Of a stretch of DNA of 64,000 nucleotides, positions 20,780-56,671 are shown in pieces. Each line of letters opens with the position of its first letter. Within the stretch, counting starts at the first letter, position 1. This stretch comes from an uncultured Candidatus Saccharibacteria bacterium. GTDB taxonomy: Bacteria > Patescibacteriota > Doudnabacteria > UBA920. The stretch is from positions 4,729-68,728 of the forward strand of contig CAYTCJ010000006.1 in assembly GCA_964436545.1 (NCBI GenBank), written 5' to 3'. A program made the position numbers and the translations under genes. The notes beneath the pieces are model-generated. The model saw nothing but the letters and a program-made list of their open reading frames with translations. It ran no database searches and was not told where the DNA came from.

Positions 20780-21193
20780 TTACGGACCGGCACCAGTACC
20801 GGCGCTAGAAACGAAATTGGAAACCACATTGACAATTACGTAAGATAAAATAATTATCACAATACCAATTAACGCGTTGACGGCTGTGCCTTTGCCTTTT
20901 TCCGCTGCTTCTTCGTTACCGGCAGAAGTAATGTATTGGAACCCGCCAATAATTAAGAACAAAACCGCTACGGCAAAAGCTATGCCCAATAGCCAATTAA
21001 TTACTGTTCTAATTAAAGAATTCACATTAGTTCCGGCGTTACAGTTAAGACCACTGGAAGGATCGCATTGTAGTCCTCGGTTTAACTGAGCGTCAGCCAC
21101 TAACAACGGAGCAAATAGTAGCAAACTTACCAAAGCGATTTGCGCTACGGATAACCAATTAATCTTTTTTAATGTTTGTATCACTTGTGTCAC
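20780..21193 (-). CDS. secreted pilin-like protein 3
   Basis: Signal peptide, CDPSSGLNCNAG, then LIIGGFQYITSAGNEEAAEKGKGTAVNALIGIVIIILSY module. Confidence 0.7.
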   Translation of the reverse strand: MTQVIQTLKKINWLSVAQIALVSLLLFAPLLVADAQLNRGLQCDPSSGLNCNAGTNVNSLIRTVINWLLGIAFAVAVLFLIIGGFQYITSAGNEEAAEKGKGTAVNALIGIVIIILSYVIVNVVSNFVSSAGTGAGP

Positions 21194-21267
21194 CCCCTCT
21201 CTTATGCCCTCTTATGTCCTTCTCTTCCCTTTCTCTTCCATTAAGAGTTAGGAAAGAGGGGGTAAGA
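21192..21267. repeat. inverted repeat ACCCCCTCTCTT...AAGAGGGGGT flanking a CT-rich spacer between pilin genes 3 and 4
   Basis: Read directly; family-B-like. Confidence 0.5.
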
Positions 21268-21439
21268 AGACCAAAGAGTTTAATTTTAACTATTATACTA
21301 TATTTTTACTTTTTATGGAAATTAACTATGTTATACCATTCTCGCCTGCCTACGGTAGACAGGCGGAAGCGGAAATCCAGAACTAATCAGACATTCTTTC
21401 TTAAGAAACAGATGTTAATAGTGTATTTATTCTTTCTGT

Positions 21440-21988
21440 TTATCTCGGTGTTGACCTATTTTCCAAAGGAGGATTATTTACTGGTTCTGATTCTCCACCC
21501 TCACTCGGATTACTAGGGGCCTGCTTTGGAGTAGCCTGACCTTGATTAGGTTTACTCTTCCCAATACTCAAGGTATTGGCCACAATCCTTACCATTGCTC
21601 CGGCCAAAATAATTACTGCCAAACCTAACACCGCATTAACTAAAATCTTTTTGGCTTGTTCACTGGCCTCTTCTTGCCCGGCGGAAGTGACATATTTAAA
21701 TCCACCATAAGTAATGGTAATTAATGCCACGCTACCGGCCAAAGCCAAAAGTGCATTAATAATCCACAGTCCAATTTGTTGAACACTGCAAAACCTAGGC
21801 AAATCTTCCACAGCATTAATGGTGCCTTTTTCAGTTTTAATAGTAAACCATTTATAAAACTTATCGCACCGGCTTTCTTGTATGGTGGTTAAGCCTTCTT
21901 TTGGCTGAGCCAAAACCGGTTTAACCAAAAAGCCAAAAATTATAACTAAACTAAATAATCCAATCTTTAAAAAAAACTGTTTAGACAT
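21440..21988 (-). CDS. secreted pilin-like protein 4 with Pro-rich disordered C-terminal tail
   Basis: Signal peptide; TYGGFKYVTSAGQEEASEQAKKILVNAVLGLAVIILAG module; tail ...TPKQAPSNPSEGGESEPVNNPP. Confidence 0.65.
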   Translation of the reverse strand: MSKQFFLKIGLFSLVIIFGFLVKPVLAQPKEGLTTIQESRCDKFYKWFTIKTEKGTINAVEDLPRFCSVQQIGLWIINALLALAGSVALITITYGGFKYVTSAGQEEASEQAKKILVNAVLGLAVIILAGAMVRIVANTLSIGKSKPNQGQATPKQAPSNPSEGGESEPVNNPPLENRSTPR

Positions 21989-23357
21989 GTTTATTGGGTT
22001 TAATAATATTTATTGCTTCAGGCTCAGGGATATTTGCCCCTAACAAATTTTGCACAATCGCAATTATACTAAAAGATAGCAAAGCCACCACCACACCCAA
22101 AACTGCCCAAGTAATGGTTTTTTTGGCTGCGGTAATGGCTTCCTCGTTTCCATTGGCAATGACCATTTTAAATCCGCCAATCATGACAAACACCACACCC
22201 CATAGCCCTACTACAGCCAAAAACCCCTTCGCAATACCTAAAAGCGTACCGGTTAAACTATCTGAAGGCAAAGGGTTAAATAAAGTTTCTTTTAAACTGG
22301 TATCTACTGTGCCAGCTCCCGCACCGGAATTACCCGCCCCTGTATTTGCACCCACATTACCCCCAGCCCCTGCACCGGTTCCTGTGCTACCCCCACCGCC
22401 TGACTTCAACCCCTCTATATTTACTTTAGCATTTCCTTCCGCATATTTAACGGTTATATTATTTTTATTTAAGACCACAACTTTTACATCATTGAGCCCA
22501 TTTTTAAAATAACCATTTTCTTCCACATTAATTTTTTGAATTTGTCTGTAAGCTAATTCAGCTTTTGTTTTTTCCATCGAACCAACTTCTCTGCTACCCA
22601 CATAAGTCTTAACTAATAAATTTGGGGATAAATTATTCGTATTTTCTAATTTTATACCAACTTCTACAATACTCAAATTTATATTTGAAGCTGTTTCAGC
22701 AGATACATCACCACGAGATCCAGTTGGATTTAAATTATTTAAATAGGCTGGCGGATAATAAGTAGAAGCATTGAAATCAATTTTTACATTCGTTACTCCT
22801 GATAAAATAGTGGGCCCTGATGTACCTGAAATATTAATATTTTCTGTTGCTGAAACTGTTAAAATATTACTTGAAACAATCCGCCCAGCCAAGGCATTGG
22901 TTCCCACAACCTTCACAAATACTGGAAATTGGTTTGAGTTCTCCAAATCACCAAAAATAAAATTACTTAAATTAAACTGAAAATTATCACTCGCCAATTC
23001 TTCACTGCGTGCTCCAGAAGAAGTAAATCTTGCAAAATTGTTAAATTCTCCATTTAGTCTTTTTTCTCCAGTCCCTGGGGTATTTACCATCCCGTATTGG
23101 CTTGGGGTGGCAACATTTTTTACTTTTACAAAATATTGTAAATAAACACCTTCTTTACATTCTGTTCCACTTCTACTAACTTGTGTAAATAATGAAATTG
23201 AGTCTGTGCTTGTAATATTTTTAGGTTGTGCTTGAAATCTTACTATATAATTACAAGACGCCTGTGCCACATTCAAAAACCCAAGTCCCACATACGAACT
23301 GAGTATAAACACCAAACAAACTATGGAAAAATATTTTTTCATAAACTTATAAGTCAC
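21981..23357 (-). CDS. secreted pilin-like protein 5 (458 aa): large beta-rich N-terminal domain, Gly-rich linker, C-terminal pilin module
   Basis: Signal peptide; GGGGSTGTGAGAGGNVGANTGAGNSGAGAG linker; MIGGFKMVIANGNEEAITAAKKTITWAVLGVVVALLSF module; overlaps neighbours by 8 and 11 bp. Confidence 0.65.
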   Translation of the reverse strand: MTYKFMKKYFSIVCLVFILSSYVGLGFLNVAQASCNYIVRFQAQPKNITSTDSISLFTQVSRSGTECKEGVYLQYFVKVKNVATPSQYGMVNTPGTGEKRLNGEFNNFARFTSSGARSEELASDNFQFNLSNFIFGDLENSNQFPVFVKVVGTNALAGRIVSSNILTVSATENINISGTSGPTILSGVTNVKIDFNASTYYPPAYLNNLNPTGSRGDVSAETASNINLSIVEVGIKLENTNNLSPNLLVKTYVGSREVGSMEKTKAELAYRQIQKINVEENGYFKNGLNDVKVVVLNKNNITVKYAEGNAKVNIEGLKSGGGGSTGTGAGAGGNVGANTGAGNSGAGAGTVDTSLKETLFNPLPSDSLTGTLLGIAKGFLAVVGLWGVVFVMIGGFKMVIANGNEEAITAAKKTITWAVLGVVVALLSFSIIAIVQNLLGANIPEPEAINIIKPNKHV

Positions 23358-23832
23358 ACTTAGCGTGGTCTTTCGGATTGGAATGAATAATTAAATAATT
23401 TAACGGGTCGGTTAAATCTAACTTGCACTCTACTTCTTTACCATTTTCCAATTTTATTTTCTTGCCGGCTCCCCCGAGTAAAATATAATTGACTGCGGTA
23501 TTTACAAACATATAAGCAAATAAGACCATTACAAACCCCACGACTGCCTGACTAATTTGCTTTTTGTAATTAGTAATTTTTTCTTCATTTCCCATAGTTA
23601 CCACTAACCAAAAGCCAGCTCCAATAATTACGTATACCGCATAAATCCCTGCTAGTCCTATAAGTGTATTGGTAACTCTGGCCACCATCACAAAAATATC
23701 TTTTAACGTGCAGGCACTTTGCCCACTACCCCCGCAAGGCACCAACCCGCCTTTGGCTTGAGCCAAAACCAAATCCGGAAAAACCAAAAAGATTCCTATC
23801 ACCAAACTGAAAATTAAAATTTTTTGTTTCAT
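23347..23832 (-). CDS. secreted pilin-like protein 6 with Cys-containing C-terminal extension
   Basis: Signal peptide; IIGAGFWLVVTMGNEEKITNYKKQISQAVVGFVMVLFAY module. Confidence 0.65.
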   Translation of the reverse strand: MKQKILIFSLVIGIFLVFPDLVLAQAKGGLVPCGGSGQSACTLKDIFVMVARVTNTLIGLAGIYAVYVIIGAGFWLVVTMGNEEKITNYKKQISQAVVGFVMVLFAYMFVNTAVNYILLGGAGKKIKLENGKEVECKLDLTDPLNYLIIHSNPKDHAKCDL

Positions 23833-42436: not shown

Positions 42437-42482
<46 letters not shown>

Positions 42483-42523
42483 TACTGGTTTTTTCAACCC
42501 CGCACCAAAATCATATTATTAGA

Positions 42524-42616
42524 TGGCGGAAGGGGTGGGATTTGAACCCACGGTCCCGATAATCTCGGGACAGCGCGTTTCGAGTGCGCCGCACTAGACC
42601 ACTATGCGACCCTTCC
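42524..42616 (-). tRNA. tRNA-Ser (anticodon CGA), long variable arm
   Basis: Anticodon loop CTCGAAA; variable arm TGTCCCGAGATTATCGGGAC; T arm CGTGGGTTCAAATCCCACC; encoded CCA; one A-C mismatch in anticodon stem. Confidence 0.75.
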
Positions 42617-44020: not shown

Positions 44021-45835
44021 TTATATATACTGGTCGCCCCAATCGTTTTGAAACAAAATAACATCATTCGGCTGTAAAAGATTTTTTAATTCCGCATGAG
44101 CTTGTTCTGCACTATTAAACCATATAATAATTGGTAAGTTGTAAGTTGTAAGTTGTAAGTTCTCTCTCTTGCTTAATTCATAATTCTTAATTCCTAATTC
44201 TATGTATCCAGTTACGCTATTCCTAATAAGTATAACCACATCTGCCACCTTTGCCAACTGCTTGCCAATCTCTAAATGGACTGTTTTTACTTCACTCCCT
44301 GTTTCCACCAACCCCGGAGTAATATAAATTTTTCTTCGGTTAGGAAACTGAGCCAAAGTTTTTATGGCTTCTTTGACCCCAACTGAATTCCCATTATACG
44401 CATCATCAATCACCAAAATATTTCCCGGTCTTAAAATAGGTTCTAAACGATGCTTCACAGGTTGAATTTTTTCTATACCTTGTTTGATTGCTTCGTTACT
44501 CATACCCAACTCTCTCGCTATGCTTATAGCGCAGTCCACATCTCCAAGTGCATACTCTCCAAGTAATTTTACAAAAATTTTCACTCCCTTTCCTTCTTCT
44601 CCTGAATTAAAGTTTCCTCTTTCTCCTTCTTCTCCTGAATTAAAGTCTCCTCTTTCTCCTTCCCGCCGTGAATTAGAGCTTTCTCTTTCTCCTTCTTTTT
44701 CTGAATTAAAGTTTCCTCTTTCTCTTTCTTCTCCTGAATTAGAGCTTTCTCTTTCTCCTTCCCCTCCTATATTAGTGTTGCCCCTCGCTTCTTCCCCCCC
44801 TATATTAGGGGGGGTTAGGGGGGGTATTTCCAATTCCCAACCTAATCTCACTGCATCAAACTTTGCATGTTTGATATTTGATATTTGATATTTGATATTT
44901 TTTTGCTTGGGTAAAATATAATTTTGATAATTCTCCACAACATTTTCATCGTCCCCATTTAATAAACAGAGTGCATCCGCTTTGGCATTTTGCACAATTT
45001 CAAAAATGGTTTGCGTAACTGCTTTTATACTGCCCATTCTTTCCAAATGCGCTTCGCTAATCCCTGTCACTACCGCCATATCCGGTTTCACCAAACTGCA
45101 AATGGCTTTTATGTCGCCTTTGTAGTGCTCCCCCATTTCGATAATAGCAATTTCAATATTTTCTTCTCCCTTTAGGGGAGAAGGTGCCTGCGGGGCAGAT
45201 GAGGGGTTGGGGGCATTAAAATTTTTCAACACCCACCTCGCTATCCCGACCGGCGTATTCACACTCTCCGGTGTGGCAAACACCTGAAACCTCAAACCCA
45301 AAACCGCTTTCAAAACTTCCTTCATAGTCGTCTTACCATAACTTCCGGCAATCCCAATAATCGACAGCTCTTTACGGGCTGTCGCCCCGGGCGAGTGCAT
45401 CCGAGACCCGAGATCCGGTGCCACAGTCAAACTTTGAATTTTTGATTTAGCCTTATAAATAATTACCTGTTTTAATAACCAATCCACTGGCCATAAAATT
45501 ACTATCCCGATTAAATAAAAAATAAAAAATAAAAAATAAAAAATTAACAAATAAACAAACCCTAAAAACCATAATTCATAATTCTTAATTCCTAATTCTG
45601 GCAAGCGGTCTAAAAACTTCCAGAAAATTAACCATGGCAGAGTTAGATAAAGCCCGATTGCCAATAACAAAATTAGGGTCGCTTTTCCTGTCCAGACTAA
45701 ACTCTTTCTCATGGGCGCCTTGGGTGGAAAATACCCTTTTTGCCGGAGTAACTTTAAATACCGTCCCAGCTCGTAATTTTCCAGCTGTAAAAGATAAAGT
45801 TGATATTTAATGATTTTTATAAGATTTACTAACAT
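44021..45835 (-). CDS. Mur ligase family protein (MurF-like by ddl adjacency) with atypical N-terminal TM extension, internal 13-aa tandem repeats and GC-hairpin insertions
   Basis: GIAGSYGKTTMKE P-loop, Mur ligase middle and C domains; N-terminal 150 aa hydrophobic; true start uncertain. Confidence 0.65.
   Translation of the reverse strand: MLVNLIKIIKYQLYLLQLENYELGRYLKLLRQKGYFPPKAPMRKSLVWTGKATLILLLAIGLYLTLPWLIFWKFLDRLPELGIKNYELWFLGFVYLLIFYFLFFIFYLIGIVILWPVDWLLKQVIIYKAKSKIQSLTVAPDLGSRMHSPGATARKELSIIGIAGSYGKTTMKEVLKAVLGLRFQVFATPESVNTPVGIARWVLKNFNAPNPSSAPQAPSPLKGEENIEIAIIEMGEHYKGDIKAICSLVKPDMAVVTGISEAHLERMGSIKAVTQTIFEIVQNAKADALCLLNGDDENVVENYQNYILPKQKNIKYQISNIKHAKFDAVRLGWELEIPPLTPPNIGGEEARGNTNIGGEGERESSNSGEERERGNFNSEKEGERESSNSRREGERGDFNSGEEGERGNFNSGEEGKGVKIFVKLLGEYALGDVDCAISIARELGMSNEAIKQGIEKIQPVKHRLEPILRPGNILVIDDAYNGNSVGVKEAIKTLAQFPNRRKIYITPGLVETGSEVKTVHLEIGKQLAKVADVVILIRNSVTGYIELGIKNYELSKRENLQLTTYNLPIIIWFNSAEQAHAELKNLLQPNDVILFQNDWGDQYI
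44105..44132. repeat. GTAAGTT x4 tandem heptamer inside the Mur ligase 3' region
   Basis: Read directly. Confidence 0.7.
44172..44203. repeat. 28-bp direct repeat TAATTCATAATTCTTAATTCCTAATTCT, copy 1 (copy 2 at 45568-45598); both inside the Mur ligase ORF, both encode LGIKNYEL
   Basis: Exact 28-mer identity read directly. Confidence 0.85.
44581..44830. repeat. about five tandem ~39-bp repeats encoding 13-aa GE(E/R)G.R..(N/S)(F/S)NS units, followed by C7/G7 hairpin CCCCCCCTATATTAGGGGGGG
   Basis: Read directly; in-frame in Mur ligase. Confidence 0.8.
45163..45183. repeat. family-B-like hairpin CTTCTCCC-ttta-GGGGAGAAG in-frame in Mur ligase (encodes SPLKGEE)
   Basis: 8-bp stem. Confidence 0.6.
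45568..45598. repeat. 28-bp direct repeat copy 2 (see 44172-44203)
   Basis: Exact identity. Confidence 0.85.
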
Positions 45836-45871: not shown

Positions 45872-46801
45872 CTAAATAAATTTAGCTAAAATTTTTACAA
45901 ACTCCTCAGGCTGATCCAAAAAACTATAATGTCCGGCATTCTTTAAAATTAGCAATTGGGAATTGGGAATTAAAAAATTCATTCGCTTCCCAAAAGCAAT
46001 TGGCGTATCCTTGTCGTCCTCGCCGGTAATTATCAAAGTTGGGATTGTAATATCCTTCATATCCTTACTTAAATCTTCGTTCACCACTTTTAAAAAAGTT
46101 TCCTTTAACGCGGGTAGAGCTAAATAATCTTCTGCCCCCAGGCTATGATAAATTTTTTTTCTCAAACCTTGCATGAATCCCGGTTTAAAAATCGGTTTAA
46201 TAATTTTAGCCACAACGCCCATTAAATTTTTTTTCCAGGCTGATGTAACAAACCCAGCGCTATCAACTAAAACCAATTTTAATATCACCCCCTGTCCCCC
46301 TCTTATTTTAAGAGGGGGGAACGGATTCGGGAGATTTGACATAGCGCACAGCTTAATTCCTACCCGCCCACCAAAACTGTGCCCCACTATAATGACATTT
46401 TTTAATGCCAACTTTTCTATAAACGCTTTGACAATTTCCGCGTAATCCCCCACACTCATTCCGTATTTTATTTCCTCTCCCTTGTGGGGAGGGTTAGAGC
46501 CTGCCCTGAGCGATAGCCGAATGGGGAGGGGGGAATCTCCAAACCCCGGCAAATCCAAAGCATAAATTGTGTACTGCTGATTTACTGACTGGCTAATTAA
46601 CTTACTAACTTCCCCCCACACTTCCTTACTACTCCCCCAACCATGCAAAAACAACAAACACTTATCGCCTGTCGATTGTGTGCCTACATAACTAATTAAT
46701 TGGTTATTGATAATTATTTGATTTTTTTCCATAAACATATAATACATTGCCCAATAGCTATTTACAATATATAATATCCAAGTAAAAATGGAATGTAGCA
46801 T
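45872..46801 (-). CDS. alpha/beta-hydrolase-fold protein with two in-frame GC-hairpin insertions
   Basis: HGWGSS, GHSFGG nucleophile elbow, C-terminal GHYSF; insertions at 46287-46324 and 46474-46540. Confidence 0.75.
   Translation of the reverse strand: MLHSIFTWILYIVNSYWAMYYMFMEKNQIIINNQLISYVGTQSTGDKCLLFLHGWGSSKEVWGEVSKLISQSVNQQYTIYALDLPGFGDSPLPIRLSLRAGSNPPHKGEEIKYGMSVGDYAEIVKAFIEKLALKNVIIVGHSFGGRVGIKLCAMSNLPNPFPPLKIRGGQGVILKLVLVDSAGFVTSAWKKNLMGVVAKIIKPIFKPGFMQGLRKKIYHSLGAEDYLALPALKETFLKVVNEDLSKDMKDITIPTLIITGEDDKDTPIAFGKRMNFLIPNSQLLILKNAGHYSFLDQPEEFVKILAKFI
46287..46324. repeat. GC hairpin CCCCCTCTT-atttt-AAGAGGGGGG in-frame in hydrolase (encodes NPFPPLKIRGGQG)
   Basis: 9-bp stem. Confidence 0.7.
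46474..46540. repeat. composite GC hairpins CCTCTCCC-ttgt-GGGGAGGG ... GGGGAGGGGGG in-frame in hydrolase (encodes ...NPPHKGEEI...)
   Basis: Read directly. Confidence 0.65.
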
Positions 46802-46824
46802 ACTGGGGGGTACACACGCCCTGT

Positions 46825-46970
46825 CCCATTAAATATTTTTCATTATTCATGATATTCTGCTGGTGCACTACGGGATGTAGTATACCGGTAGTACGCGCGC
46901 TTCGGGTGCGCGAAGACAGGGTTCAATTCCCTGCATCCCGACCAGCAGAATATAATGAATATTTAATGGG
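46825..46970. repeat. long imperfect inverted repeat (CCCATTAAATATT...ATTCTGCTGGT / ACCAGCAGAAT...AATATTTAATGGG) enclosing tRNA-Pro
   Basis: Outer 13-bp and inner 11-bp arms perfectly complementary. Confidence 0.7.
46871..46944 (+). tRNA. tRNA-Pro (anticodon CGG)
   Basis: Acceptor CGGGATG/CATCCCG, anticodon stem-loop CGCGC-TTCGGGT-GCGCG, T arm CAGGGTTCAATTCCCTG, encoded CCA. Confidence 0.8.
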
Positions 46971-47027
46971 ATATAGATGCGTGAAAACTTAGGGGTTTCC
47001 GCCAAAAGTGGATCCCGCTTTGCAGGA

Positions 47028-47048
47028 CAATTCCCTGCATCCCGACCA
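47028..47048 (+). other. 21-nt exact duplicate of the tRNA-Pro 3' end (T loop to CCA)
   Basis: Identical to 46924-46944. Confidence 0.8.
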
Positions 47049-47086
47049 AAGAAAAAGACCTTAAATTATTTAAGGTCTTTTTCTTT
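47048..47086. terminator. perfect 16-bp-stem hairpin AAAGAAAAAGACCTTA-loop-TAAGGTCTTTTTCTTT (bidirectional terminator)
   Basis: Read directly. Confidence 0.7.
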
Positions 47087-47112
47087 GCAATACTCAGTAT
47101 TGAATACATATG

Positions 47113-47186
47113 TGGTGGACCTGGGGGGAATCGAACCCCCGACTAATCCATGCCATGGATCCGTATTACCATTATACTACAGGCCC
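47113..47186 (-). tRNA. tRNA-Ala (anticodon GGC) with G3:U70
   Basis: Anticodon loop ATGGCAT, T arm GGGGGTTCGATTCCCCC, acceptor GGGCCTG/CAGGTCC, encoded CCA. Confidence 0.85.
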
Positions 47187-47241
47187 TTAATTAACTGGTA
47201 GCTACTTACAACTCACTAATCCCTAAATGCTATCCCCTATT

Positions 47242-47502
47242 TTACCTTACTTTTCTTACCTGTTCAAGTGTCTCTTGCCACATAGTTTGAAATTGCACAG
47301 CTTGTTTTTTAAAACCCGGAATCACTCCCATAGTGTTTAATAGCCACCCCACTAAGGCCACGGCAATTACCACTCCCAAAATACTGCCAATCCCATGGAG
47401 CACTCCCCTAACAAAAGCGCGCCACAAGCTTTCGGTTTTATGGAAAATGCCCACTAAACTGCGGTTAATTTTTTCTAATTCGGTTTTTAATTCAGGGTCC
47501 AT
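47242..47502 (-). CDS. hypothetical small protein with C-terminal TM helix
   Basis: ORF plus hydrophobic segment. Confidence 0.4.
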   Translation of the reverse strand: MDPELKTELEKINRSLVGIFHKTESLWRAFVRGVLHGIGSILGVVIAVALVGWLLNTMGVIPGFKKQAVQFQTMWQETLEQVRKVR

Positions 47503-47515
47503 TTTATTTTCTTTA

Positions 47516-47929
47516 TTAATTTTGTCTTTCTAAAATTTGTGAATATTTTGTTTTATGTTTCCACAATAAATACAAATTAATTAGCCAAAATACATTTCCC
47601 AACAAGGCACCAGAAGTAAAGGCTCCACCATCAATCACCCAATGAAACGCTACAATATTTACAGTAATTGGTAAAACTAAAATGGCAGACAAGGCTTCTC
47701 TACGAGTCCAAAGCGCCCACAACGCTAAAGCGTTTACTACTGCCATTATAACATTAATATATTGAATTTCAGCTAAAATCTTAATAAACTCAAACGCCTT
47801 TGGGGTGTTATACATATCCGGCGCAGGTGCTGGGACAAAGCCTAAATGACTACCCACAATCCCAACCAATGACATAAGTAAAATGAGACTAAAAACTATT
47901 TTTAAAGCCACGTATATTTTTTGATTCAT
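47516..47929 (-). CDS. hypothetical integral membrane protein (4 TM)
   Basis: Hydrophobicity. Confidence 0.45.
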   Translation of the reverse strand: MNQKIYVALKIVFSLILLMSLVGIVGSHLGFVPAPAPDMYNTPKAFEFIKILAEIQYINVIMAVVNALALWALWTRREALSAILVLPITVNIVAFHWVIDGGAFTSGALLGNVFWLINLYLLWKHKTKYSQILERQN

Positions 47930-47993
47930 AATATTACTACTATATTAGTTATTAATTCTGGTGCCCTCGGAGGGAATTTCACCTCGACACTTA

Positions 47994-48068
47994 TGGTATC
48001 CTCACCAGGAGTCGAACCTGGATCTAAACGTTAGGAGTGTTTTGTTCTATCCGTTGAACTATGAGGAC
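47994..48068 (-). tRNA. tRNA-Arg (anticodon CCT)
   Basis: D arm GTTCAACGGATAGAAC, anticodon loop CTCCTAA, T arm CAGGTTCGACTCCTG, encoded CCA. Confidence 0.8.
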
Positions 48069-48690
48069 AAATAATACTAGCAACTTGTTTATTTATAGCA
48101 AAGATAGTCTTTAATATCAAACCACTTTTTTTTACTCTAACTCTACACATACCATATTTTAACTTTCCTATTTTTTTGCCTTTTAAAATATTAATACTTA
48201 CCCTCTCTTTTAAATTTAATCCGGTAACTAATGACCAGAAATTTATGCAATTGTCTTGATTCAAATCCTCATAAACCCTAATTGATACTTTAAAATCACT
48301 GTTAGACACATTAAAATCTTTACGCAAAATTTGCATAAAAGTCTCAACCATCACCGGGTCTGTGTTAGTAAAACTTAAATCTTTCTTGTTGCCTTCCGCC
48401 CAATACAGCGCACAAGCGACCAAGATCCTATCTTTAGCATCTAGAGTGGAAATCAAACGCTTAGCCTTTTCATGTGCGATAACCCAAGCCTTTTCTGATA
48501 TAATCCTACTAGGTTTCCTTCGTTCCAGCCAACGATTTAAAAATTCAGGCAATATCTCAACCATTCTTGAATATCTTAATGCTGTTGATTTTGATATCCC
48601 TAAAATACGACTAATCTCCGGAATACTATGACCGGTCTTCCTTAATTCAAAAATTTTATCTTTTGTTTCTATCTTTAGTAGTCTTGGCAT
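48031..48690 (-). CDS. HTH-domain protein abutting tRNA-Arg, possibly a LAGLIDADG-like endonuclease fold
   Basis: N-terminal HTH GHSIPEISRILGISKSTALRY; weak LAGLIDADG-like ALYWAEGNK; last ~12 codons overlap the tRNA so the true stop is uncertain. Confidence 0.4.
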   Translation of the reverse strand: MPRLLKIETKDKIFELRKTGHSIPEISRILGISKSTALRYSRMVEILPEFLNRWLERRKPSRIISEKAWVIAHEKAKRLISTLDAKDRILVACALYWAEGNKKDLSFTNTDPVMVETFMQILRKDFNVSNSDFKVSIRVYEDLNQDNCINFWSLVTGLNLKERVSINILKGKKIGKLKYGMCRVRVKKSGLILKTIFAINKQVASIICPHSSTDRTKHS

Positions 48691-48732
48691 AAGTCAATCT
48701 TAACAAATAATTTAAAATCGTTCCGGTATTAT

Positions 48733-50214
48733 ATGATTATATCTAAAAGAATTAATCTAATTAATCTCTGCCGAATATTTTTTTTATTATTTCTATTCTC
48801 AATCTTTTTTCCTATTCGTTATGTCTTCCCTACCTCGGAAAGCTATATTACTGGGCTTTATTCAGACTTTACTACTTTTTCCTTATATTTAAGCGATATA
48901 TTCTTATTTATTGCTTTTTTCTTTATTTTGTGGTATAATTATAAATATTTTATTGAATTCATTGTTAATTGTAAATTGCTAGTTGCTTTATGGATTTGGC
49001 TTATATTAGCCATTTTTATTTTTAATCCGCATATCTCAGGTTTAAATTTTTGGTCATTTTTTAAGTTTTTTGAACTCATTGTTGTTGCATATGGAACAAT
49101 TAAGGCAATTTTCAATTATCAATTTTCAATTTCGAAATCTTGGTTTTTAGGCATGTTCATATTATTAGGCACGGTTCAATCAATAATTGGGCTAATGCAA
49201 TTTCTTAAACAAGCGCCAATTGGCCTAAGTAAATTAGGAGAGCAACAAATTTACCCTTATTTAAGCGGAGTAGCCAAAATAGTTTCAGGTGGAACAATCT
49301 ATATTCGTGCCTATGGCACCTTTCCTCATCCTAATATTTTGAGTGTTTTTTTGTTAGTTGCAATATTTTTGCTTATTCATCTTTCGTTAAATCAGCAAAA
49401 ACCTAATTTAACAAGCAACTTATTCTCTAAGCACTACTCTCTCATCACTAAAATTATCCTTAATTTAGCGCTTTTTATAAATATCCTTGGTTTGACTGTC
49501 ACTTTTTCACGTGGAGCATTCTTAGCTTTAGGGTTAGGATTATTGGTATTTTTTGGACTACTGGCTTATTGGCTCAAAAAGCCTGTCATTCTGAACTCGT
49601 TTCAGAACCTAGATTCCAGATCGGTCCGCCCACTGGCAGACAGCATGACAAAAAACCTAAAAGTAGTTGCCATTAATATACTTTTAGCTTTAGCTGTGGC
49701 ATTTTTAATTTTCAAACCTTTTCTCCTTTCACGTGCCACAATTTCCGATCAAGCTACAATAGAAAGAAAAATTTACAACCAAACAGCCAGAAACATGATT
49801 AAAGCTAATCCGGTTATTGGCAAGGGAGCAGGGGAGAGTCTGCTTCATATGGAACAATATAGCCCAGTTAAACTAAAACCGTGGCAAATTCAGCCGATTC
49901 ATAACTATTTTTTGCTATCTGCCTCAGAGATTGGAATATTTGGGTCTCTAATTTTAATTTTGGTATTTCTCTCTCATCTGTTTGGAATTTGGAATTTAAA
50001 AATTTGGGATTTATTTAAAAATTGGAAATTAGAAATTAGAAATTTAAAAACCAGCTTTTACCGCCTAACTCTTTTTACCATCTTAATATGTTTTATAATA
50101 TTAATGCTCTTTGACCATTACTTTTATACCATTCAATCTACCCAAATGCTCTTATGGATGACTTTGGGAATAATTGCATCCACAAAAGAAAATGAAATTA
50201 ATCAAAATCCTTGA
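48733..50214 (+). CDS. O-antigen ligase/polymerase-like (Wzy_C) polytopic membrane protein
   Basis: About 12 TM helices, periplasmic loop with SRGAF.ALGLG motif. Confidence 0.6.
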   Translation: MIISKRINLINLCRIFFLLFLFSIFFPIRYVFPTSESYITGLYSDFTTFSLYLSDIFLFIAFFFILWYNYKYFIEFIVNCKLLVALWIWLILAIFIFNPHISGLNFWSFFKFFELIVVAYGTIKAIFNYQFSISKSWFLGMFILLGTVQSIIGLMQFLKQAPIGLSKLGEQQIYPYLSGVAKIVSGGTIYIRAYGTFPHPNILSVFLLVAIFLLIHLSLNQQKPNLTSNLFSKHYSLITKIILNLALFINILGLTVTFSRGAFLALGLGLLVFFGLLAYWLKKPVILNSFQNLDSRSVRPLADSMTKNLKVVAINILLALAVAFLIFKPFLLSRATISDQATIERKIYNQTARNMIKANPVIGKGAGESLLHMEQYSPVKLKPWQIQPIHNYFLLSASEIGIFGSLILILVFLSHLFGIWNLKIWDLFKNWKLEIRNLKTSFYRLTLFTILICFIILMLFDHYFYTIQSTQMLLWMTLGIIASTKENEINQNP

Positions 50215-50617
50215 GGGCACACGAACAGACGCCCTCATAATAGCAATTTTAATATTTTATGGATTTTATTCGCATCCACATTTTAATTTGTGGACAATCT
50301 TAAGTATTTTTTGTTTTACCACAGGTGCTGGACTAGGTTTAATGGCTCGGCATCAATTAGGTAAAGCATTTTCCGTTAAACCAAAAGCCACCATATTGGT
50401 AAAACATGGGGTCTACGCCAAAATTAAGCATCCAATATATTTGGCCGGAATGATCATTAACTTGGGCTTTTGTTTTCTTTATCAACACTGGATTATTTAT
50501 ATAATTTCATTTTTCTTTTTAATTTTACAAATCTTTAGAGCAACGAAGGAAGAAAAAATCTTAACCAATACCTTTGGACAAGAGTATATAACTTACAAAA
50601 AATCAACTTGGTTTTAA
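50174..50617 (+). CDS. isoprenylcysteine carboxyl methyltransferase (ICMT)/PEMT-family membrane methyltransferase
   Basis: LVKHGVYAKIKHPIYLAG motif. Confidence 0.7.
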   Translation: MHPQKKMKLIKILEGTRTDALIIAILIFYGFYSHPHFNLWTILSIFCFTTGAGLGLMARHQLGKAFSVKPKATILVKHGVYAKIKHPIYLAGMIINLGFCFLYQHWIIYIISFFFLILQIFRATKEEKILTNTFGQEYITYKKSTWF

Positions 50618-50702
50618 AAATCCCCATCCGCCAACTGGCGGAAGGGGATTGAATTTTATAAAACATCCGTGTTATCTGTGATTGTCTGTGTATCTGTGAT
50701 AT

Positions 50703-51170
50703 TTACTTATGATACTGCTTCCCAGCTAAAATTGCACAAGCTCTATATATCTGTTCTTCCAATACTACTCTTGCCAAATTATGAGGAAAAGTAAGCGGGG
50801 AGAGAGAAACCGAATAATTACTGTATTGCTTTAAAGATTCGTGAAGTCCTACACCACTGCCAATTACAAACACCAGTTCTTTACCCAAACCTCCGGTGCG
50901 TTGTAAAAATTCCGCAAAAACCGAACTATCTCTTAAAGTGCCTTTTTCTTCCAAAAGAATTACCAGCGCATCGGCCGGTAAATTTTTTATAATACTTTCC
51001 GCTTCCTTTTCTTTTACTCTCTCAATGGAATCATTTTTCCGATACGGTTCTTCGGGCAATTCCACTATTTTAACCTTGGCAAAAGGGGAGAGACGTTTTA
51101 AAAATTCTTTTTCCAATTCCAAATACGCATTTTCTTTAAACTTCCCTAAACAAATAATTCTTATCTTGAG
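50703..51170 (-). CDS. rlmH: 23S rRNA (pseudouridine1915-N3)-methyltransferase RlmH
   Basis: SPOUT RlmH full-length similarity starting MLKIRIICLGK. Confidence 0.85.
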   Translation of the reverse strand, partial: LKIRIICLGKFKENAYLELEKEFLKRLSPFAKVKIVELPEEPYRKNDSIERVKEKEAESIIKNLPADALVILLEEKGTLRDSSVFAEFLQRTGGLGKELVFVIGSGVGLHESLKQYSNYSVSLSPLTFPHNLARVVLEEQIYRACAILAGKQYHK

Positions 51171-51180
51171 CATAAACCAA

Positions 51181-51229
51181 TTATACAAAAAATAAGGGGG
51201 TCGTCGCAAGCTATCTTGCAACGACCCCG
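51181..51229 (-). terminator. strong rho-independent terminator (GC stem plus T-run) for the 64-aa high-GC ORF
   Basis: Minus strand GGGTCGTTGCAAGATAGCTTGCGACGACCCCC followed by TTATTTTTTG. Confidence 0.75.
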
Positions 51230-51248
51230 ACGAATCCTCACCAGTTTA

Positions 51249-51443
51249 TCATCGCCTAAGATCAGATTTGAACAAAACTTCTTCATTCATGTCGTCGCCG
51301 ACATGAATGCTTTTTACGACACGCGCAGAGCGCGCATCTACGAGCTCCTTTGCACGTTTAGCATTTTCTGCCACGACGATGGCAGTACCGTGTGTGGTAA
51401 CCCACATGGCACCGCCCGTAATTTCCATAACAAACAGTTTCAT
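51249..51443 (-). CDS. small (64 aa) protein encoded with conspicuously high-GC codon usage; function unknown
   Basis: Local GC far above the window background; own terminator; AT-rich promoter region upstream. Confidence 0.5.
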   Translation of the reverse strand: MKLFVMEITGGAMWVTTHGTAIVVAENAKRAKELVDARSARVVKSIHVGDDMNEEVLFKSDLRR

Positions 51444-51581
51444 AAAACCTCCTTACTTTTAAAATTTACTTGTTTACCAAAATATGGTAAACTTATTTTG
51501 AATAATTATTTAATATATATTATTTTTCTTTTATTTAAGCCCAAATTTATGAAATTTTTCGTCAAAAATAATTGACAATTT

Positions 51582-52331
51582 ATGAAAAATAACATTTTAT
51601 CGTGGTTGAAATCTTCGGGACTGGACGAACAAAGGGCAAGTATTTTTTTAGCTCTTTTGAGTTTAGGAGAATCTACTGCCAAACAGATTTCTGAAAAAGT
51701 TAAGCTGGGTAGAACAGCGGTTTACGACAATTTAAGAATTTTAGAAGAAAAAGGTTATGTAAAATCTATAAGGCTTGGTAAAAGGCAAAAATTTGTTCCC
51801 ACACACCCCAACGAACTTTACAAACAATACGAAAGCAAAAAACAACAGTTAAAAGAACTGCTTCCGGATTTTTTGGCATTATACGCAGAAAAAAATTCTA
51901 AACCTTTTGCGCAATTATTTGAGGGCCCATACGCAGCAAGAGAAATTTACGAAGATATATTAAGAGTTGAAGAGAAAGAATATGTTTACTTTTCACCATC
52001 TGAATTAACTCTACAAGTGGTCAATCGTAAATTTATAGAAGACTGGATAAAACGTAGGGTAGCAACAGGCATACGCTCTCGTTCTTTACGAGTAAAATCT
52101 AAAACAGTGCCCAATGCCCCGATTTTTAACGAAGAAACTACATATCTTAGACAAATTCGATATTTAAACGGCTTTGTGGATTTAAAAGCAGCTATTTATA
52201 TTTACGGAAATAATATTGGGGTAATTTCCACCATAAGAGAAAACAGTGCGTTTATTATACACTCGCATGACTTAGCATTTAGTCTAAAACAAATTTTTGA
52301 ATTTATGTGGCAATTATCTTTAAAATCATAG
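51582..52331 (+). CDS. TrmB-family transcriptional regulator
   Basis: N-terminal TrmB HTH (ASIFLALLSLGESTAKQISEKVKLGRTAVYDNLRILEEKGYV). Confidence 0.75.
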   Translation: MKNNILSWLKSSGLDEQRASIFLALLSLGESTAKQISEKVKLGRTAVYDNLRILEEKGYVKSIRLGKRQKFVPTHPNELYKQYESKKQQLKELLPDFLALYAEKNSKPFAQLFEGPYAAREIYEDILRVEEKEYVYFSPSELTLQVVNRKFIEDWIKRRVATGIRSRSLRVKSKTVPNAPIFNEETTYLRQIRYLNGFVDLKAAIYIYGNNIGVISTIRENSAFIIHSHDLAFSLKQIFEFMWQLSLKS

Positions 52332-52382
52332 AGACTTTACACATAAAACTTATTTATATAAAATTATTCAGTGTAAACCTTT

Positions 52383-52433
52383 GGGCCTGTAGTAAAGTGG
52401 TCCACCAAAGGCGGATAAATATTACACGGCATT
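52383..52433 (+). pseudogene. scrambled tRNA-Ala remnants: internally deleted Ala(GGC) minihelix GGGCCTGTAGTAAAGTGGTCCACCA plus a 14-nt exact piece of Ala(CGC)
   Basis: Manual comparison with intact tRNAs at 47113-47186 and 52521-52594. Confidence 0.6.
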
Positions 52434-52520
52434 TTCACCCCGTTACTCAAAATTCAACTAGGGCTCATGGTCCAGTGGTAAGAAGTGGCATTTTTATCTC
52501 GTATTAAATTTTAATTTTCT

Positions 52521-52594
52521 GGGGGTATAGTAAAGTGGTATTACACGGCATTCGCATTGCCGGGGCTCGGGTTCGATTCCCGATACCTCCACCA
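52521..52594 (+). tRNA. tRNA-Ala (anticodon CGC) with G3:U70
   Basis: Anticodon stem-loop CGGCA-TTCGCAT-TGCCG, T arm TCGGGTTCGATTCCCGA, encoded CCA. Confidence 0.8.
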
Positions 52595-52691
52595 TAAAAA
52601 TTTTAATACTGGAATGCATTGCCGACTTGTCCGACGAAGCTTTAGCGAAGTCAGAGGCGGGGGTTCGACTGCAGTCCTCCGTAGCTTTCTT

Positions 52692-52773
52692 GTCCACCAT
52701 AGCTTTCTCGTCCGATGAAGTCACTTAGGTGACGAAGTTGGAAGCGAAGGATGGATTCCCCCCAGGTCCACCA
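52692..52773 (+). other. additional tRNA-Ala(GGC) 3'-end fragments (GTCCACCA at 52692-52699; GATTCCCCCCAGGTCCACCA at 52754-52773)
   Basis: GTCCACCA occurs three times within 400 bp; last copy matches 20 nt of the Ala(GGC) 3' end. Confidence 0.6.
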
Positions 52774-52783
52774 AATTTACTTA

Positions 52784-53494
52784 ATGAAAAATATTACTCA
52801 CCAAAAACAAAAAAAACTTTGGAACCTAGAACACCAAAAGCCTTTTATGCTTTTACCTATGGACTCACAGACACCCTCAAAAGGTGTCGTTTTTTTTTAT
52901 AACTGGTTAAAGAAAAACTATAAACAGAAAAGCCTCAAAGGCTTAGAAATGGGCTCGGGTAAAGGTAGGAACTCTATTTGGCTAACTCAGCAAGGGGTTA
53001 ATATGACTGGATTTGATTTTTCCAAAATTGCAATTAATCACGCAAAAAATAGAATGAAAACTTTAAACTTAAAACACCATATAAAATTTTTGGTTGGGGA
53101 TGCGACTAAAACTTGGCCGTTCAAAAATAATCAATTTGACTTTGGAATTGACTGCTTTGCTTCAACTGACATAGAAACATCTAAAGGCAGAGATTTTGCC
53201 AACAAAGAGTTTTGGCGGGTATTAAAACCACAGGGCGTATTATTTCTGTATTTACTTTCTACTGAAGACCAGTTTCATCGGCAAATGATCCAAACATCAC
53301 CCGCTAACGAACCCAATGCTTTTTTGCATCCCAAGACCGGTAAATATGAAAAGGTGTTTAACCAAAATGAAATAAAAAAACTCTATAAAGACTGGAAATT
53401 TATTCAAATCAAACGGATTACCAAAACCGCCACCTTTTTTGGCAAAAAGTATAACTGTAAACATTTTTGGATAATTCTTGAAAAAACAAAATAA
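52784..53494 (+). CDS. class I SAM-dependent methyltransferase (ORF-track start 52751 lies inside a tRNA fragment, so the 52784 ATG is preferred)
   Basis: Motif I LEMGSGKGRNSIWL, motif post-I GFDFS. Confidence 0.7.
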   Translation: MKNITHQKQKKLWNLEHQKPFMLLPMDSQTPSKGVVFFYNWLKKNYKQKSLKGLEMGSGKGRNSIWLTQQGVNMTGFDFSKIAINHAKNRMKTLNLKHHIKFLVGDATKTWPFKNNQFDFGIDCFASTDIETSKGRDFANKEFWRVLKPQGVLFLYLLSTEDQFHRQMIQTSPANEPNAFLHPKTGKYEKVFNQNEIKKLYKDWKFIQIKRITKTATFFGKKYNCKHFWIILEKTK

Positions 53495-53530
53495 AATAAC
53501 TTTTAAAGCCCTGTAACATTTCAGGGCTTT

Positions 53531-55313: not shown

Positions 55314-55558
55314 TTTAAATCTTGCTGTTAAATCATTCTCATATTCTCAAGAATATGAGAATGATTTATTTTATTAAAACCAACCCAAACTCTCTATGGT
55401 CTTATTCGCGCGAATAATACCATAGAGGCTTCAACAATAATTTTTTACAACCCCGTCCTTTACTAAAGGCAGGATTATTTTTTTATTTGACTAAAAACAT
55501 AAAGGCTGGTAAGTTAGCAAAAGTCGGTAAATTTCAAAACGAAAAGGAGGCCAAAAAA

Positions 55559-56671
55559 ATGGCCATGAAAATTGACGGTTTGGAAATCGAATACACAAAT
55601 CACCGCATGGTTACCCCTTTACAAATCGGCGACAAGCCCCCGATGAAAGACATCACCCGTCTGGTGGTTAACGCCACCGTGGACGGAGTGCGAGGAGTCG
55701 GAGAAGCCACTCTTGCCGATGTCTGGGCAGGGGCAGACTTGGAGGAGATGAAGGCTTACGCCTCAGCTCTGCAAGCCCGAATGCGAGGAATGGATACGGA
55801 AAACCCCCTTGAATTATATAAGAAAATGGTGCCGACCATGCTAGCTGACTCGGACATCAACAAAGTTGCACAATTGATCGTCTGGGCGGGGTTCTACAAC
55901 GCACTGTGGGATGCGTACGGCAAAATGCACGAGAAGCATCCCTGCCTCATGCTGGGCGAAGTTGATAAGAGATACGCTGGCATTTTTCTCCCTATGCCTC
56001 GCAAGAAGGTGTACTTGGAGTACACCTATGGGGGCGCAAGCAAATTACTTGGTGAGAGGGGACTGCTTGCGGCAAAGCACCAACGAGGCTACCGGGTAGT
56101 CAAAGTGAAGTGCGGAGGGGACCCCGAAGAGGACTTCAAGAAAATGATGGCGATCTACGCAGCCACCGGCTGCCAACTGTGGCCGGACTTCAACGGATCG
56201 GGAACACCTGAGGGAGTCAAACAACTCTGCAACGCCCTCAAGGCGTGCCTCCGTCAGGGAGAATTGCTCGCCGTGGAGCAACCCTTCTCGGTGGCGGAGA
56301 CCTTCAAAATCGACATCCACGGCATGGGCCACGTTCCCTTTTTCTTAGACGAGTCCGCGGTCATGCCTGAGGACATCCTTGCCGCCAAAGCGCTGGGCTA
56401 CCTGGGAATAGTGGTGAAGGCAGACAAGGGCGGTCTGTCCCACGTGGCAGAGATGGTGCGGGTTGCCAAAGAGCACAGAATGTTGGTGTCGGTCCAGGAC
56501 CTGACCAGTGACCCCTGGCCGTCGCTCGGAATCGCCGCCTACCTCCGCGATCTCCACGGACACATAGCCGAGATGAACCAAATCGAGCTTCTGGTGACCC
56601 CGAAGCCCGTCGTTATCCAGAACGGGTGCGTTGACACAAGCCAGCTGACAGGTCCAGGGTTCTACCCGTAG
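55559..56671 (+). CDS. enolase-superfamily (MR/MLE-like) enzyme encoded with foreign high-GC codon usage; start at the ATG 8 nt after AAGGAGG
   Basis: KVKCG (KxK), metal ligands D..E(QP)..D(ES), capping domain; GC clearly above window background. Confidence 0.7.
   Translation: MAMKIDGLEIEYTNHRMVTPLQIGDKPPMKDITRLVVNATVDGVRGVGEATLADVWAGADLEEMKAYASALQARMRGMDTENPLELYKKMVPTMLADSDINKVAQLIVWAGFYNALWDAYGKMHEKHPCLMLGEVDKRYAGIFLPMPRKKVYLEYTYGGASKLLGERGLLAAKHQRGYRVVKVKCGGDPEEDFKKMMAIYAATGCQLWPDFNGSGTPEGVKQLCNALKACLRQGELLAVEQPFSVAETFKIDIHGMGHVPFFLDESAVMPEDILAAKALGYLGIVVKADKGGLSHVAEMVRVAKEHRMLVSVQDLTSDPWPSLGIAAYLRDLHGHIAEMNQIELLVTPKPVVIQNGCVDTSQLTGPGFYP

Follow-up and report, generated by a model that had tools for sequence, protein, structure and literature searches.

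Nested tRNA genes and their probable replacement in place in a Patescibacteria chromosome

Bacteriophages, integrative-conjugative elements (ICEs) and genomic islands are known to target tRNA genes, and the partial tRNA genes derived from their integration have been reviewed (PMC9897764). The tRNA genes of Patescibacteria can harbour group I introns in their anticodon loops, with 35/36 among the positions used (Nakagawa et al. 2026, PMC13011429). Here we analyse 64,000 nucleotides (nt) of a contig (CAYTCJ010000006.1; this whole stretch is hereafter called the window) from a bacterium of the Patescibacteria (Candidate Phyla Radiation, CPR), in which two genes, tRNA-Pro(CGG) and tRNA-Ala(CGC), are each enclosed by the split pieces of a gene of the same kind. 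An original prediction had taken such pieces for a graveyard left around the neighbouring tRNA-Ala(GGC) by repeated integration and excision. We instead consider, at a probability of about 60%, that each cluster is a tRNA gene lying within the remains of earlier copies of the same gene, brought about by insertion of a small cassette and decay of the interrupted copy, here referred to as the shell.

Among described systems, the nearest counterpart is an integrative element which enters a tRNA gene and regenerates the interrupted tRNA. The likeness comprises the target in the anticodon or T-loop, the restoration of the tRNA by the incomer, and scars that remain and stack serially. The clusters differ in size, as the incomer measures only about 100-240 nt, and in the absence of integrase and cargo; the incomer moreover holds a whole tRNA, its ends pair with each other, and the old gene is left as two non-overlapping flanking halves without a duplicated core, in a nested arrangement. 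The group I introns of Patescibacteria share the phylum, the precise interruption of the anticodon loop, in several cases at 35/36, and the lack of a target-site duplication; the common 35/36 position hints at a shared vulnerable or targeted site. A group I intron was nevertheless rejected as an explanation, as no covariance-model core was recovered: Rfam Intron_gpI gave no match at E up to 10 in window positions 46000-53500, nor at E up to 0.1 in five comparison loci (L009, L010, L019, L043 and L048; L-numbers denote loci or contigs set against the window, L010 being an unrelated metagenome contig). The inserts are also too short, consisting of a helix plus a tRNA, and the interrupted gene decays, suggesting that it is not spliced back.

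Three further systems share single traits. Disrupted archaeal tRNAs, such as the split tRNAs of Nanoarchaeum and the multiple or transposing introns of Thermoproteales, likewise feature interruptions in loops and helices of leader and trailer that join the halves, but the present genes are bacterial (sigma-70, Mur ligases, RNase III/Y), an intact copy sits inside the interruption, and the outer halves are degenerate. A bulge-helix-bulge was not seen by eye at the junctions of a nested tRNA-Ile in L043, which form a 4 x 3 internal loop instead of 3-nt bulges 4 bp apart. Repetitive extragenic palindromes (REP/REPIN) and miniature inverted-repeat transposable elements (MITEs) resemble the short palindromes recurring within tRNA shells, and the arms of the L043 tRNA-Ile insert carry the same termini. 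Of the traits of MITEs derived from DDE transposons, terminal inverted repeats are present, with arms that pair, whereas no target-site duplication is found at the L043 tRNA-Ile junctions; copy number is low in the sampled DNA, no REP-associated tyrosine transposase (RAYT) or other transposase was seen there, and some copies hold a tRNA in the hairpin loop. Finally, the RNase III processing stems of rRNA operons also place a long, covarying helix, G.U pairs included, around a stable RNA, and the window contains a gene for RNase III (16226-16918). Here, in contrast, the helix surrounds single tRNAs, is restricted to nested ones plus one other among 54 tRNAs surveyed, and continues into the anticodon stem of a dead tRNA. 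A full-text literature search returned no description of nested tRNA genes, although absence of a report is no proof of novelty.

The tRNA-Pro cluster is the simpler of the two, and comprises the following features.

46747-46775, plus strand: promoter-like site TTGCCC-17-TATAAT just upstream of the Pro 5' shell (10 of 12 consensus positions; putative in function, by consensus match only); conserved in L048/L049
46789-46823, plus strand: outer, dead tRNA-Pro 5' shell, running from the acceptor 5' strand through the D-arm to the anticodon-stem 5' strand CACGC and stopping within the anticodon loop
46824-46864, plus strand: left arm (leader) of the insert, 41 nt, pairing with 46941-46971 (inverted repeat I25)
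46871-46944, plus strand: intact inner tRNA-Pro(CGG), CCA encoded (ARAGORN; Rfam tRNA, 57.4 bits)
46941-46971, plus strand: right arm (trailer) of the insert, beginning within the ACCA of the tRNA
46972-47048, plus strand: outer tRNA-Pro 3' shell with the anticodon-stem 3' strand GCGTG at 46979-46983, 34 nt inserted into the variable region, a T-arm that has become degenerate, and a 3' end with a 21-nt copy
47049-47088, no strand assigned: palindromic hairpin resembling a terminator, where the Pro nest and tRNA-Ala(GGC) converge (noticed on reading the sequence; unflagged by the consensus scan)
47113-47186, minus strand: intact, un-nested tRNA-Ala(GGC) (ARAGORN, Rfam)

The exact 21-nt duplicate of the tRNA-Pro 3' end at 47028-47048, which the original prediction had already pointed out, is confirmed in direct orientation (z = 15), separated from the gene by 83 gene-free nt. 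Beyond that report, local alignment relates 46789-46823 to the 5' half of tRNA-Pro (p = 0.007), placing the intact gene between the two halves of another. GCGTG of the 3' shell pairs with the upstream CACGC to rebuild the outer anticodon stem, and the leader and trailer form a duplex far more stable than expected (z = -5.8). The same nest occurs in L048/L049, with the same gene neighbourhood, a helix-turn-helix (HTH) protein that is 80% identical, and an inner tRNA that is 100% identical to that of the window; a different hairpin followed by a T-run takes the place of 47049-47088. In L048 the shell is better preserved, with 23 consecutive positions of the 5' part (z = 19) and 38 of 40 positions of the 3' part, which begins at position 36, matching the inner tRNA, despite an interruption by a 20-nt palindrome, CCTGCCTGTCGGCAGACAGG. 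The window shell in turn has suffered substitutions, mismatches in the acceptor and D-stem, a D-loop indel and the 34-nt insertion. Since the two lineages carry independent indels and a palindrome insertion beside an unchanged inner tRNA, the shells evolve like pseudogenes. The helix of arms and outer anticodon stem behaves differently: when the window is compared with L048, two of its changes are compensatory (one in the arms, one in the outer anticodon stem), two keep the pairing by way of G.U and none breaks a pair, which suggests that it may be under selection as an RNA helix. The Pro nest is therefore old, being common to the L048/L049 lineage, and for this part of the stretch the variability expected of a recent integration site gives way to the shared ancestral arrangement that the original prediction had itself named as speaking against its claim.

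The tRNA-Ala(CGC) locus is more elaborate, and is composed as follows.

52336-52364, plus strand: promoter-like site TTTACA-17-TAAAAT, preceding the outermost Ala shell by 19 nt (10 of 12 consensus positions, consensus match only)
52383-52460, plus strand: unit A, the outermost layer, with a tRNA-Ala 5' shell (52383-52401 and 52420-52433) followed by a left arm
52401-52415, plus strand: hairpin element TCCACCAAAGGCGGA in the D-loop of unit A, interrupting the 5' shell
52434-52460, plus strand: left arm of unit A, starting with TTCACCCCGTTA
52461-52492, plus strand: unit B, the middle layer (52461-52520 overall), with a degenerate tRNA-Ala 5' shell, GGGCTCATGGTCC...GTGGCATT, recognised by inspection
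52493-52520, plus strand: left arm of unit B
52521-52594, plus strand: intact inner tRNA-Ala(CGC), CCA encoded, G3:U70 (ARAGORN; Rfam tRNA, 65 bits)
52595-52614, plus strand: AT-rich right arm of the inner insert, pairing with 52499-52516, likewise recognised by inspection
52615-52773, plus strand: outer Ala 3' shell, consisting of TGCATTGCCG (52615-52624), a 33-nt filler, CGGGGGTTCGA (52658-52668), an 85-nt filler that includes GTCCACCA at 52692, and GATTCCCCCCAGGTCCACCA (52754-52773)

All fragments listed by the original prediction are present and, by alignment statistics and shuffles, non-random, as are the two intact tRNA-Ala genes, which ARAGORN and Rfam recover and which both read G3:T70 in the DNA. 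They include GGGCCTGTAGTA (52383-52394), the 14-nt piece TATTACACGGCATT (52420-52433), and GTCCACCA, which stands at 52400, 52692 and 52766 and, with the tRNA-Ala(GGC) gene, reaches four copies in the window against 0.65 expected. The 20-mer at 52754-52773 is identical to the 3' end of tRNA-Ala(GGC) (E = 2e-5), and 159 gene-free nt separate it from tRNA-Ala(CGC). To these we add GCATTGCCG (52616-52624), CGGGGGTTCGA and the second 5' unit at 52461-52492. All pieces are on the plus strand and in the order of a tRNA around the intact gene: upstream, positions 1-19, the 15-nt hairpin, 19-32, an arm, the degenerate 5' unit and a further arm; downstream of the intact tRNA, an arm, positions 34-42, the 33-nt filler, 46-56, the 85-nt filler and 55-74. 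Together they cover 64 nt of tRNA-Ala in order, as compared to a maximum of 25 in 2000 shuffles and 18 at 1801 control positions in the real sequence of the window. The junction falls at positions 33-35, in the anticodon loop, and pairing remains possible in each of the four stems of the outermost shell, whose interruptions are all in loops. The locus has at least two, and probably three, layers.

Two elements of the original prediction have to be revised here. First, the fragments had been tied to tRNA-Ala(GGC). The first 12 and last 20 nt of that gene are indeed the same as the two ends of the outer Ala shell, yet they run the opposite way: the 20-mer is direct with respect to the inner tRNA-Ala(CGC) and inverted relative to the identical end of tRNA-Ala(GGC), and can for this reason not be an attachment-site (att) duplicate of the latter. 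Four tests of the flanks of tRNA-Ala(GGC) were all non-significant, and no pieces adjoin it. Second, GGGCCTGTAGTAAAGTGGTCCACCA, read as an internally deleted minihelix, is the first 19 nt of tRNA-Ala running into the TCCACCAAAGGCGGA hairpin, with tRNA homology resuming at 52420. A minihelix (microhelix-Ala) was thus rejected: its CCACCA belongs to the 15-nt hairpin element, which also occurs at 50627-50642 and in L019, and the resemblance to a tRNA 3' end is coincidence.

Comparison with relatives identifies what was interrupted. L048 lacks the Ala nest and has a plain tRNA-Ala(CGC), GGGCCTATAGTCAAGTGG...TAGGTCCACCA, a resident type which is equally plain in L011 and L012 and matches the outer shell of the window. 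The inner window gene (GGGGGTA/TACCTCC, with T-stem core CGGG/CCCG) differs from this type and groups with the inner tRNAs of L009 and L010. Considering this T-arm together with the match between the shell and the plain genes of L048, L011 and L012, the outer shell is the old resident tRNA-Ala(CGC) rather than a derivative of tRNA-Ala(GGC), and the inner gene is the incoming type. Three contigs that are 91% identical to the window in DNA sequence (L002-L004) pass from the TrmB flank to a single 5' piece like unit B and on to the tRNA, without the 78-nt unit A. In L013, the downstream half of the nest is about 97% identical to the window, save for a 12-nt duplication and the final acceptor strand: TGAGTCC in L013 pairs with GGGCTCA of unit B at 7 of 7 positions (one G:U), and CAGGTCC in the window pairs with GGGCCTG of unit A. 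Both end states could be explained by deletions between direct repeats of a three-layer ancestor. The Ala nest is accordingly young and variable between close strains. It is not an artefact of a single assembly, as an independent Logan assembly holds an identical 3.6-kb stretch spanning the locus. A search of metagenomes with an exact 23-mer of tRNA-Ala(CGC) led to four contigs, and the same 23-mer had no match in GTDB representative genomes.

Several observations on the surroundings of the Ala nest may be noted in their own right. The methyltransferase gene adjoining the nest is 69-89% identical between the window and L013 in blocks of 100 columns, and over 52635-53500 the identity is mosaic, at about 97% in the downstream half of the nest, 69-76% in the first half of the gene and 88-89% in the second, suggesting either recombination within the population or constraint on the intergenic stretch. 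Relative to rlmH, a block of a 64-aa gene and TrmB is inverted between the window (51249-52773) and L048 (757-1977), and in L048 tRNA-Ala(CGC) lies on the other side of this block, in the opposite orientation to TrmB; through this switch of side and orientation the break in synteny falls at the Ala nest. The TrmB-like protein has its closest named relatives in metagenome-assembled genomes of Candidatus Doudnabacteria (77% and 69% identity), and downstream of the homologues at 77% identity there is neither conserved synteny nor any tRNA. The contigs of L002, L003 and L004 all end inside or just before the Ala nest, indicating that nests break short-read assemblies. As for tRNA-Ala(GGC), the gene at one and the same genomic position downstream of a DUF5665 gene is very different in L048 (5098-5173) and the window (47113-47186), with a D-arm of GCTC...GAGC and GTAT...ATAC, respectively; this looks like replacement in place without a visible shell.

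The arrangement is not confined to these two genes. For all seven window tRNAs, 5' halves match upstream flanks only and 3' halves downstream flanks only, with significant matches for Val, Ser, Pro and Ala(CGC) and none for Ala(GGC), Arg and Leu. The pieces at Val and Ser and the un-nested tRNA-Arg are the following.

17306-17317, minus strand: exact 12-nt duplicate of the 5' end of tRNA-Val (z = 5.8), upstream of the gene itself (17076-17150)
42439-42500, minus strand: tRNA-Ser-like 3' half with variable arm, T-arm with compensatory changes and CCA (z = 12.3; family D3)
47994-48068, minus strand: intact, un-nested tRNA-Arg(CCT) (ARAGORN, Rfam, flank tests)

The Val copy, some 155 nt upstream of its gene, is directly followed by a hairpin, CCTCCGT...ACGGAGG, and the Ser half, which derives from a different tRNA-Ser, begins 24 nt downstream of tRNA-Ser(CGA) (42524-42616, minus strand). 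A repeat family common to the Val and Ala flanks was not supported, the only shared sequences being non-significant 12-mers (E about 1.4).

A survey of 54 tRNAs in 616 kb of related loci yielded about 14-15 own-type fragments in nested orientation, with upstream 5' pieces about as frequent as downstream 3' pieces, and four matches in the opposite orientation, of which two are clearly neighbouring tRNA genes or copies, one is a 5' piece of the next tRNA and one is ambiguous. The feature recurs across Patescibacteria. Complementarity of leader and trailer is no general property of these tRNAs, being significant only for three nests, namely tRNA-Ile of L043 (z = -6.2), tRNA-Pro of the window (-5.8) and tRNA-Ala of L010 (-4.3), and for one un-nested tRNA-Phe (-4.2). 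The most complete case is tRNA-Ile(GAU) of L043, where positions 1-35 are followed by a left arm, an identical whole tRNA, a right arm and position 36 to the 3' end. The split is exactly at 35/36, with neither duplication nor loss (CTGA/insert/TAAT in the target CTGATAAT), the arms end in CCTGCCCGCC...GGCAGGCGGG, and the outer gene is intact apart from the insert; own-type pieces are found near all four tRNAs of this 20-kb locus. L019 carries a tRNA-Glu and then a 3' half starting at position 36, while in L023 tRNA-Arg(CCG) is followed by two 3' pieces in series, and tRNA-Arg(CCT) is preceded by a 5' piece of 42 nt. In L010, a clean one-layer Ala nest with perfectly complementary 13-nt arms is framed by outer ends equal to the plain tRNA of L012, the shell having lost GG from the D-loop and two of five T-stem pairs. 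The junction of this nest shares the 16-mer CATTTTCACCCCGTTA, followed by GGGC(C/T)CATGGT, with units A and B of the window, even though the two sequences otherwise match only at tRNAs (83-89% identity).

We propose the following course of events. A unit of left arm, complete tRNA and right arm would enter the anticodon loop of a resident tRNA of the same kind, arriving in one piece and leaving the resident 5' half upstream and the 3' half downstream. The insert seems to have neither promoter nor terminator and would thus appear to be transcribed from the old promoter and stopped at the old terminator, so that the old gene's signals serve the new tRNA; promoter-like sites do shortly precede the outer 5' shells, and the outer Pro 3' shell is closely followed by a terminator-like hairpin. 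In the transcript, the arms and the old anticodon stem could pair into one long helix with the new tRNA at its tip, which would keep the latter from mispairing with the old halves and be a plausible substrate for RNase III, before RNase P and 3' trimming release the tRNA. The new gene would again be a target, and repetition would account for the layers at the Ala(CGC) locus, while dispensable outer shells decay through point changes, small palindromic hairpins entering loops and deletions between the direct repeats of the nest. A homing-type nuclease or a recombinase acting on hairpin loops is a possible agent. Still more tentatively, and in our estimate less likely than not, Patescibacteria may carry integrase-less 'tRNA replacement cassettes', hairpins with a complete tRNA gene in the loop, which home to the anticodon loop of a resident tRNA gene of the same kind, often at 35/36, capture its promoter and terminator, spread between distant lineages and re-invade their own copy, giving Russian-doll nesting and repeated turnover in place.

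Should replacement in place be the right reading, the tRNA genes of these reduced genomes would not just be inherited but would give way, on the spot, to small copies coming in, and tRNA gene trees may not track the organisms. It could further represent a new strategy for a mobile element, which carries its whole target gene and inserts into it, as well as a natural case of a tRNA on a long helix, maybe dependent on RNase III. Annotation may mistake shells and halves for pseudo-tRNAs, for tmRNA-like matches, as nearly happened with Rfam here, or, in the case of island-finding tools, for att sites, and for assembly it matters that the contigs of relatives break exactly at nests.

A number of findings weigh against the replacement of tRNAs by inserted cassettes. 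No enzyme, circular intermediate or free cassette copy was found in our data, and viral contigs gave no match to the inner tRNAs or the junction motif. The arms are not conserved between L009 and L010 despite nearly identical inner tRNAs, so the arms may evolve after insertion rather than travel with the tRNA, and the AT-rich arms of the inner Ala insert form a duplex that is not significant alone (z = -1.5). Covariation of the arms derives from two lineages only, and the inner and outer tRNA-Ile of L043 could owe their perfect identity to gene conversion instead of recency. Moreover, junction positions vary (12/13, 33-36, 43/44 and 56/57), and several cases are one-sided, with a lone 3' piece of 17-21 nt starting in the T-loop, for which classical integration or anchored illegitimate recombination may be an equally good explanation.

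The best surviving alternative, which we judge unlikely, is that the pieces are classical scars of integrase-bearing phages or islands that entered at the anticodon or T-loop, brought partial tRNA copies and were later deleted. Genomes of Patescibacteria have a strong deletion bias, by which such elements could vanish. Integrases that target tRNA genes leave 3' pieces downstream whose start lies in the anticodon loop or T-loop (PMC9897764), and the Pro piece at 47028-47048, those at Pro and Gly of L043 and the two serial pieces after tRNA-Arg(CCG) of L023 fit this description. However, integration does not predict 5' pieces upstream at about the same frequency, complementary halves that abut at one position without a shared core repeated at the two junctions, flanking arms that pair with each other, or an insert with a whole rather than a partial tRNA. 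The inverted Ala 20-mer is equally at odds with it, only 84-240 nt lie between the repeats instead of kilobases of cargo, and Pfam detected no integrase, recombinase or transposase in the 64-kb window (59 of 61 non-overlapping open reading frames (ORFs) of at least 110 aa), in agreement with what the original prediction had stated.

The claim of repeated integration and excision hence survives in part: remnants of insertion and variability between strains are supported. The geometry appears to be nested rather than one of direct attL/attR repeats bounding an island; 3' pieces do follow downstream in direct orientation, but they are matched by 5' pieces upstream. Variability of the site among relatives holds for Ala(CGC), which is plain in L048, lacks one layer in L002 and has a different outer 3' end in L013, but fails for Pro. 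Two supporting points fall away. The adjacent genes are not of high GC content, with 0.31-0.41 over 46-55 kb and 0.53 only at 56-57 kb, and the adjacency of tRNA-Arg and an HTH gene is ancestral rather than a scar, as it is kept in all related contigs checked. By its gene content (NusA, IF-2, RNase Y, RNase III, TrmD, SMC, FtsH, RecA, FtsK, Ddl and a MurF-like Mur ligase, by Pfam), the window is ordinary chromosome of a Patescibacteria bacterium.

Similarly doubtful is a by-product of recombination without a dedicated element, either through tandem duplication with deletions or through transformed DNA that is anchored at a tRNA and joined illegitimately. In its favour, tRNA genes are the best-conserved anchors between distant genomes, and RecA is encoded in the window; one-sided fragments with varied end points fit, deletions between direct repeats do occur here (L002 as compared to the window), and a promoter on one side with a terminator on the other would bias which remnants survive. 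Yet halves that complement each other exactly, such as Ile of L043 at 35/36 or the Pro 3' shell of L048 at 36, would not arise time and again from independent deletions or joints, the spacers of a tandem array are direct repeats rather than mutually complementary arms, and an identical junction 16-mer in two unrelated contigs is unexpected. Tandem duplication with random deletion as the main cause was rejected on the exactly complementary halves and the inverted arms.

Decidedly improbable is a functional RNA design, in which the outer tRNA is still a gene and the insert a new kind of intron or split tRNA, or the outer halves serve as a processing scaffold. The pairable stems of the outermost Ala shell, with interruptions confined to loops, would agree with such a role, as would the outer tRNA-Ile of L043, intact save for its insert, the covarying outer anticodon stem and the use of 35/36, a known intron site in Patescibacteria tRNAs (PMC13011429). 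Compared with L013, the region downstream of the Ala nest is also better conserved (97%) than the neighbouring gene (69-89%). Against this, older shells are degenerate, as in the window Pro nest and L010, or interrupted by a palindrome, as in L048, and the window and L048 shells carry independent indels around an unchanged inner tRNA. Neither the group I core nor the bulge-helix-bulge sought above was found, and the folding stability of the Ala 3' region alone is not unusual (z = +0.45). A circularly permuted two-piece transfer-messenger RNA (tmRNA), or another alanine-accepting RNA, is effectively refuted. In its favour, Rfam tmRNA_permuted matches 52567-52665 (29.2 bits, E = 0.005), a match that pairs the tRNA 3' end with a downstream GGGGGTT, and the outer acceptor stem carries G3:U70 and a terminal ACCA. 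The score, however, falls short of the gathering threshold (47), and the match is confined to model positions 36-93 of 213; the matched T-arm and acceptor belong to a full tRNA of 65 bits, the outer 3' end has no adjoining T-arm, ARAGORN calls no tmRNA, and no plausible tag frame was apparent by eye in three frames.

Palindromes recur in and around the nests. The hairpin family TCCRCC-N3-4-GGCGGA is found in the window at 50627-50642, where it is terminator-like and follows an ICMT-like gene, and at 52401-52415 in the D-loop of Ala unit A, as well as in L019 (1020-1049), where two tandem copies adjoin the displaced tRNA-Glu 3' half. A second palindromic element, with the termini CCTGCCYGYC...GGCAGRCRGG, recurs in distant genomes: at an intergenic site in the window (1919-1960, minus strand), in L043 (9547-9566 and 14690-14856) and in L048 (7969-7988). 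It takes the form of 20-nt palindromes within dead tRNA shells, and of the arms around the nested tRNA-Ile in L043.

Nucleases encoded nearby were considered as agents of the nests, starting from the gene that abuts tRNA-Arg.

48031-48690, minus strand: HTH protein gene with a LAGLIDADG-like domain, the last 38 nt overlapping tRNA-Arg

The gene stands alone and keeps its place overlapping tRNA-Arg(CCT) throughout the seven lineages or contigs examined, with neither an intron or intein location nor variable presence; in L056-L058, tRNA-Ala(CGC) lies just upstream of it. A structural model gave no significant Foldseek match, and a sequence search of the PDB no match at all. That the protein acts on tRNA genes is speculation. 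This gene, a PDDEXK_3 gene and a GIY-YIG-like ORF of L019 were rejected as agents, as they do not co-occur with nests at other loci. The PD-(D/E)XK nuclease gene (126 aa, PF13366, 6237-6617) is located between ymdB and the gene for RNase Y; inverted repeats of 43 nt (6198-6240 and 6620-6662) frame it exactly, in a layout of arm, cargo and arm as at the tRNA inserts. The small GIY-YIG-like ORF (L019 1164-1415, minus strand) ends 11 nt upstream of the tRNA-Glu with the displaced 3' half.

Elsewhere in the window, six listed copies of a 33-nt unit (44551-44814), in an array of about eight periods, are in frame with the MurF-like ORF, where they give rise to a repetitive stretch rich in Gly and Glu in which GE(E/R)G and NS residues recur. 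On the minus strand, 19641-23832 is taken up by six successive genes with the type IV secretion system (T4SS)-pilin domain PF18895. The only GC-rich kilobase of the window (0.53 versus about 0.38) holds an enolase-superfamily gene (MR_MLE, 55487-56671, plus strand), which may have been acquired horizontally.

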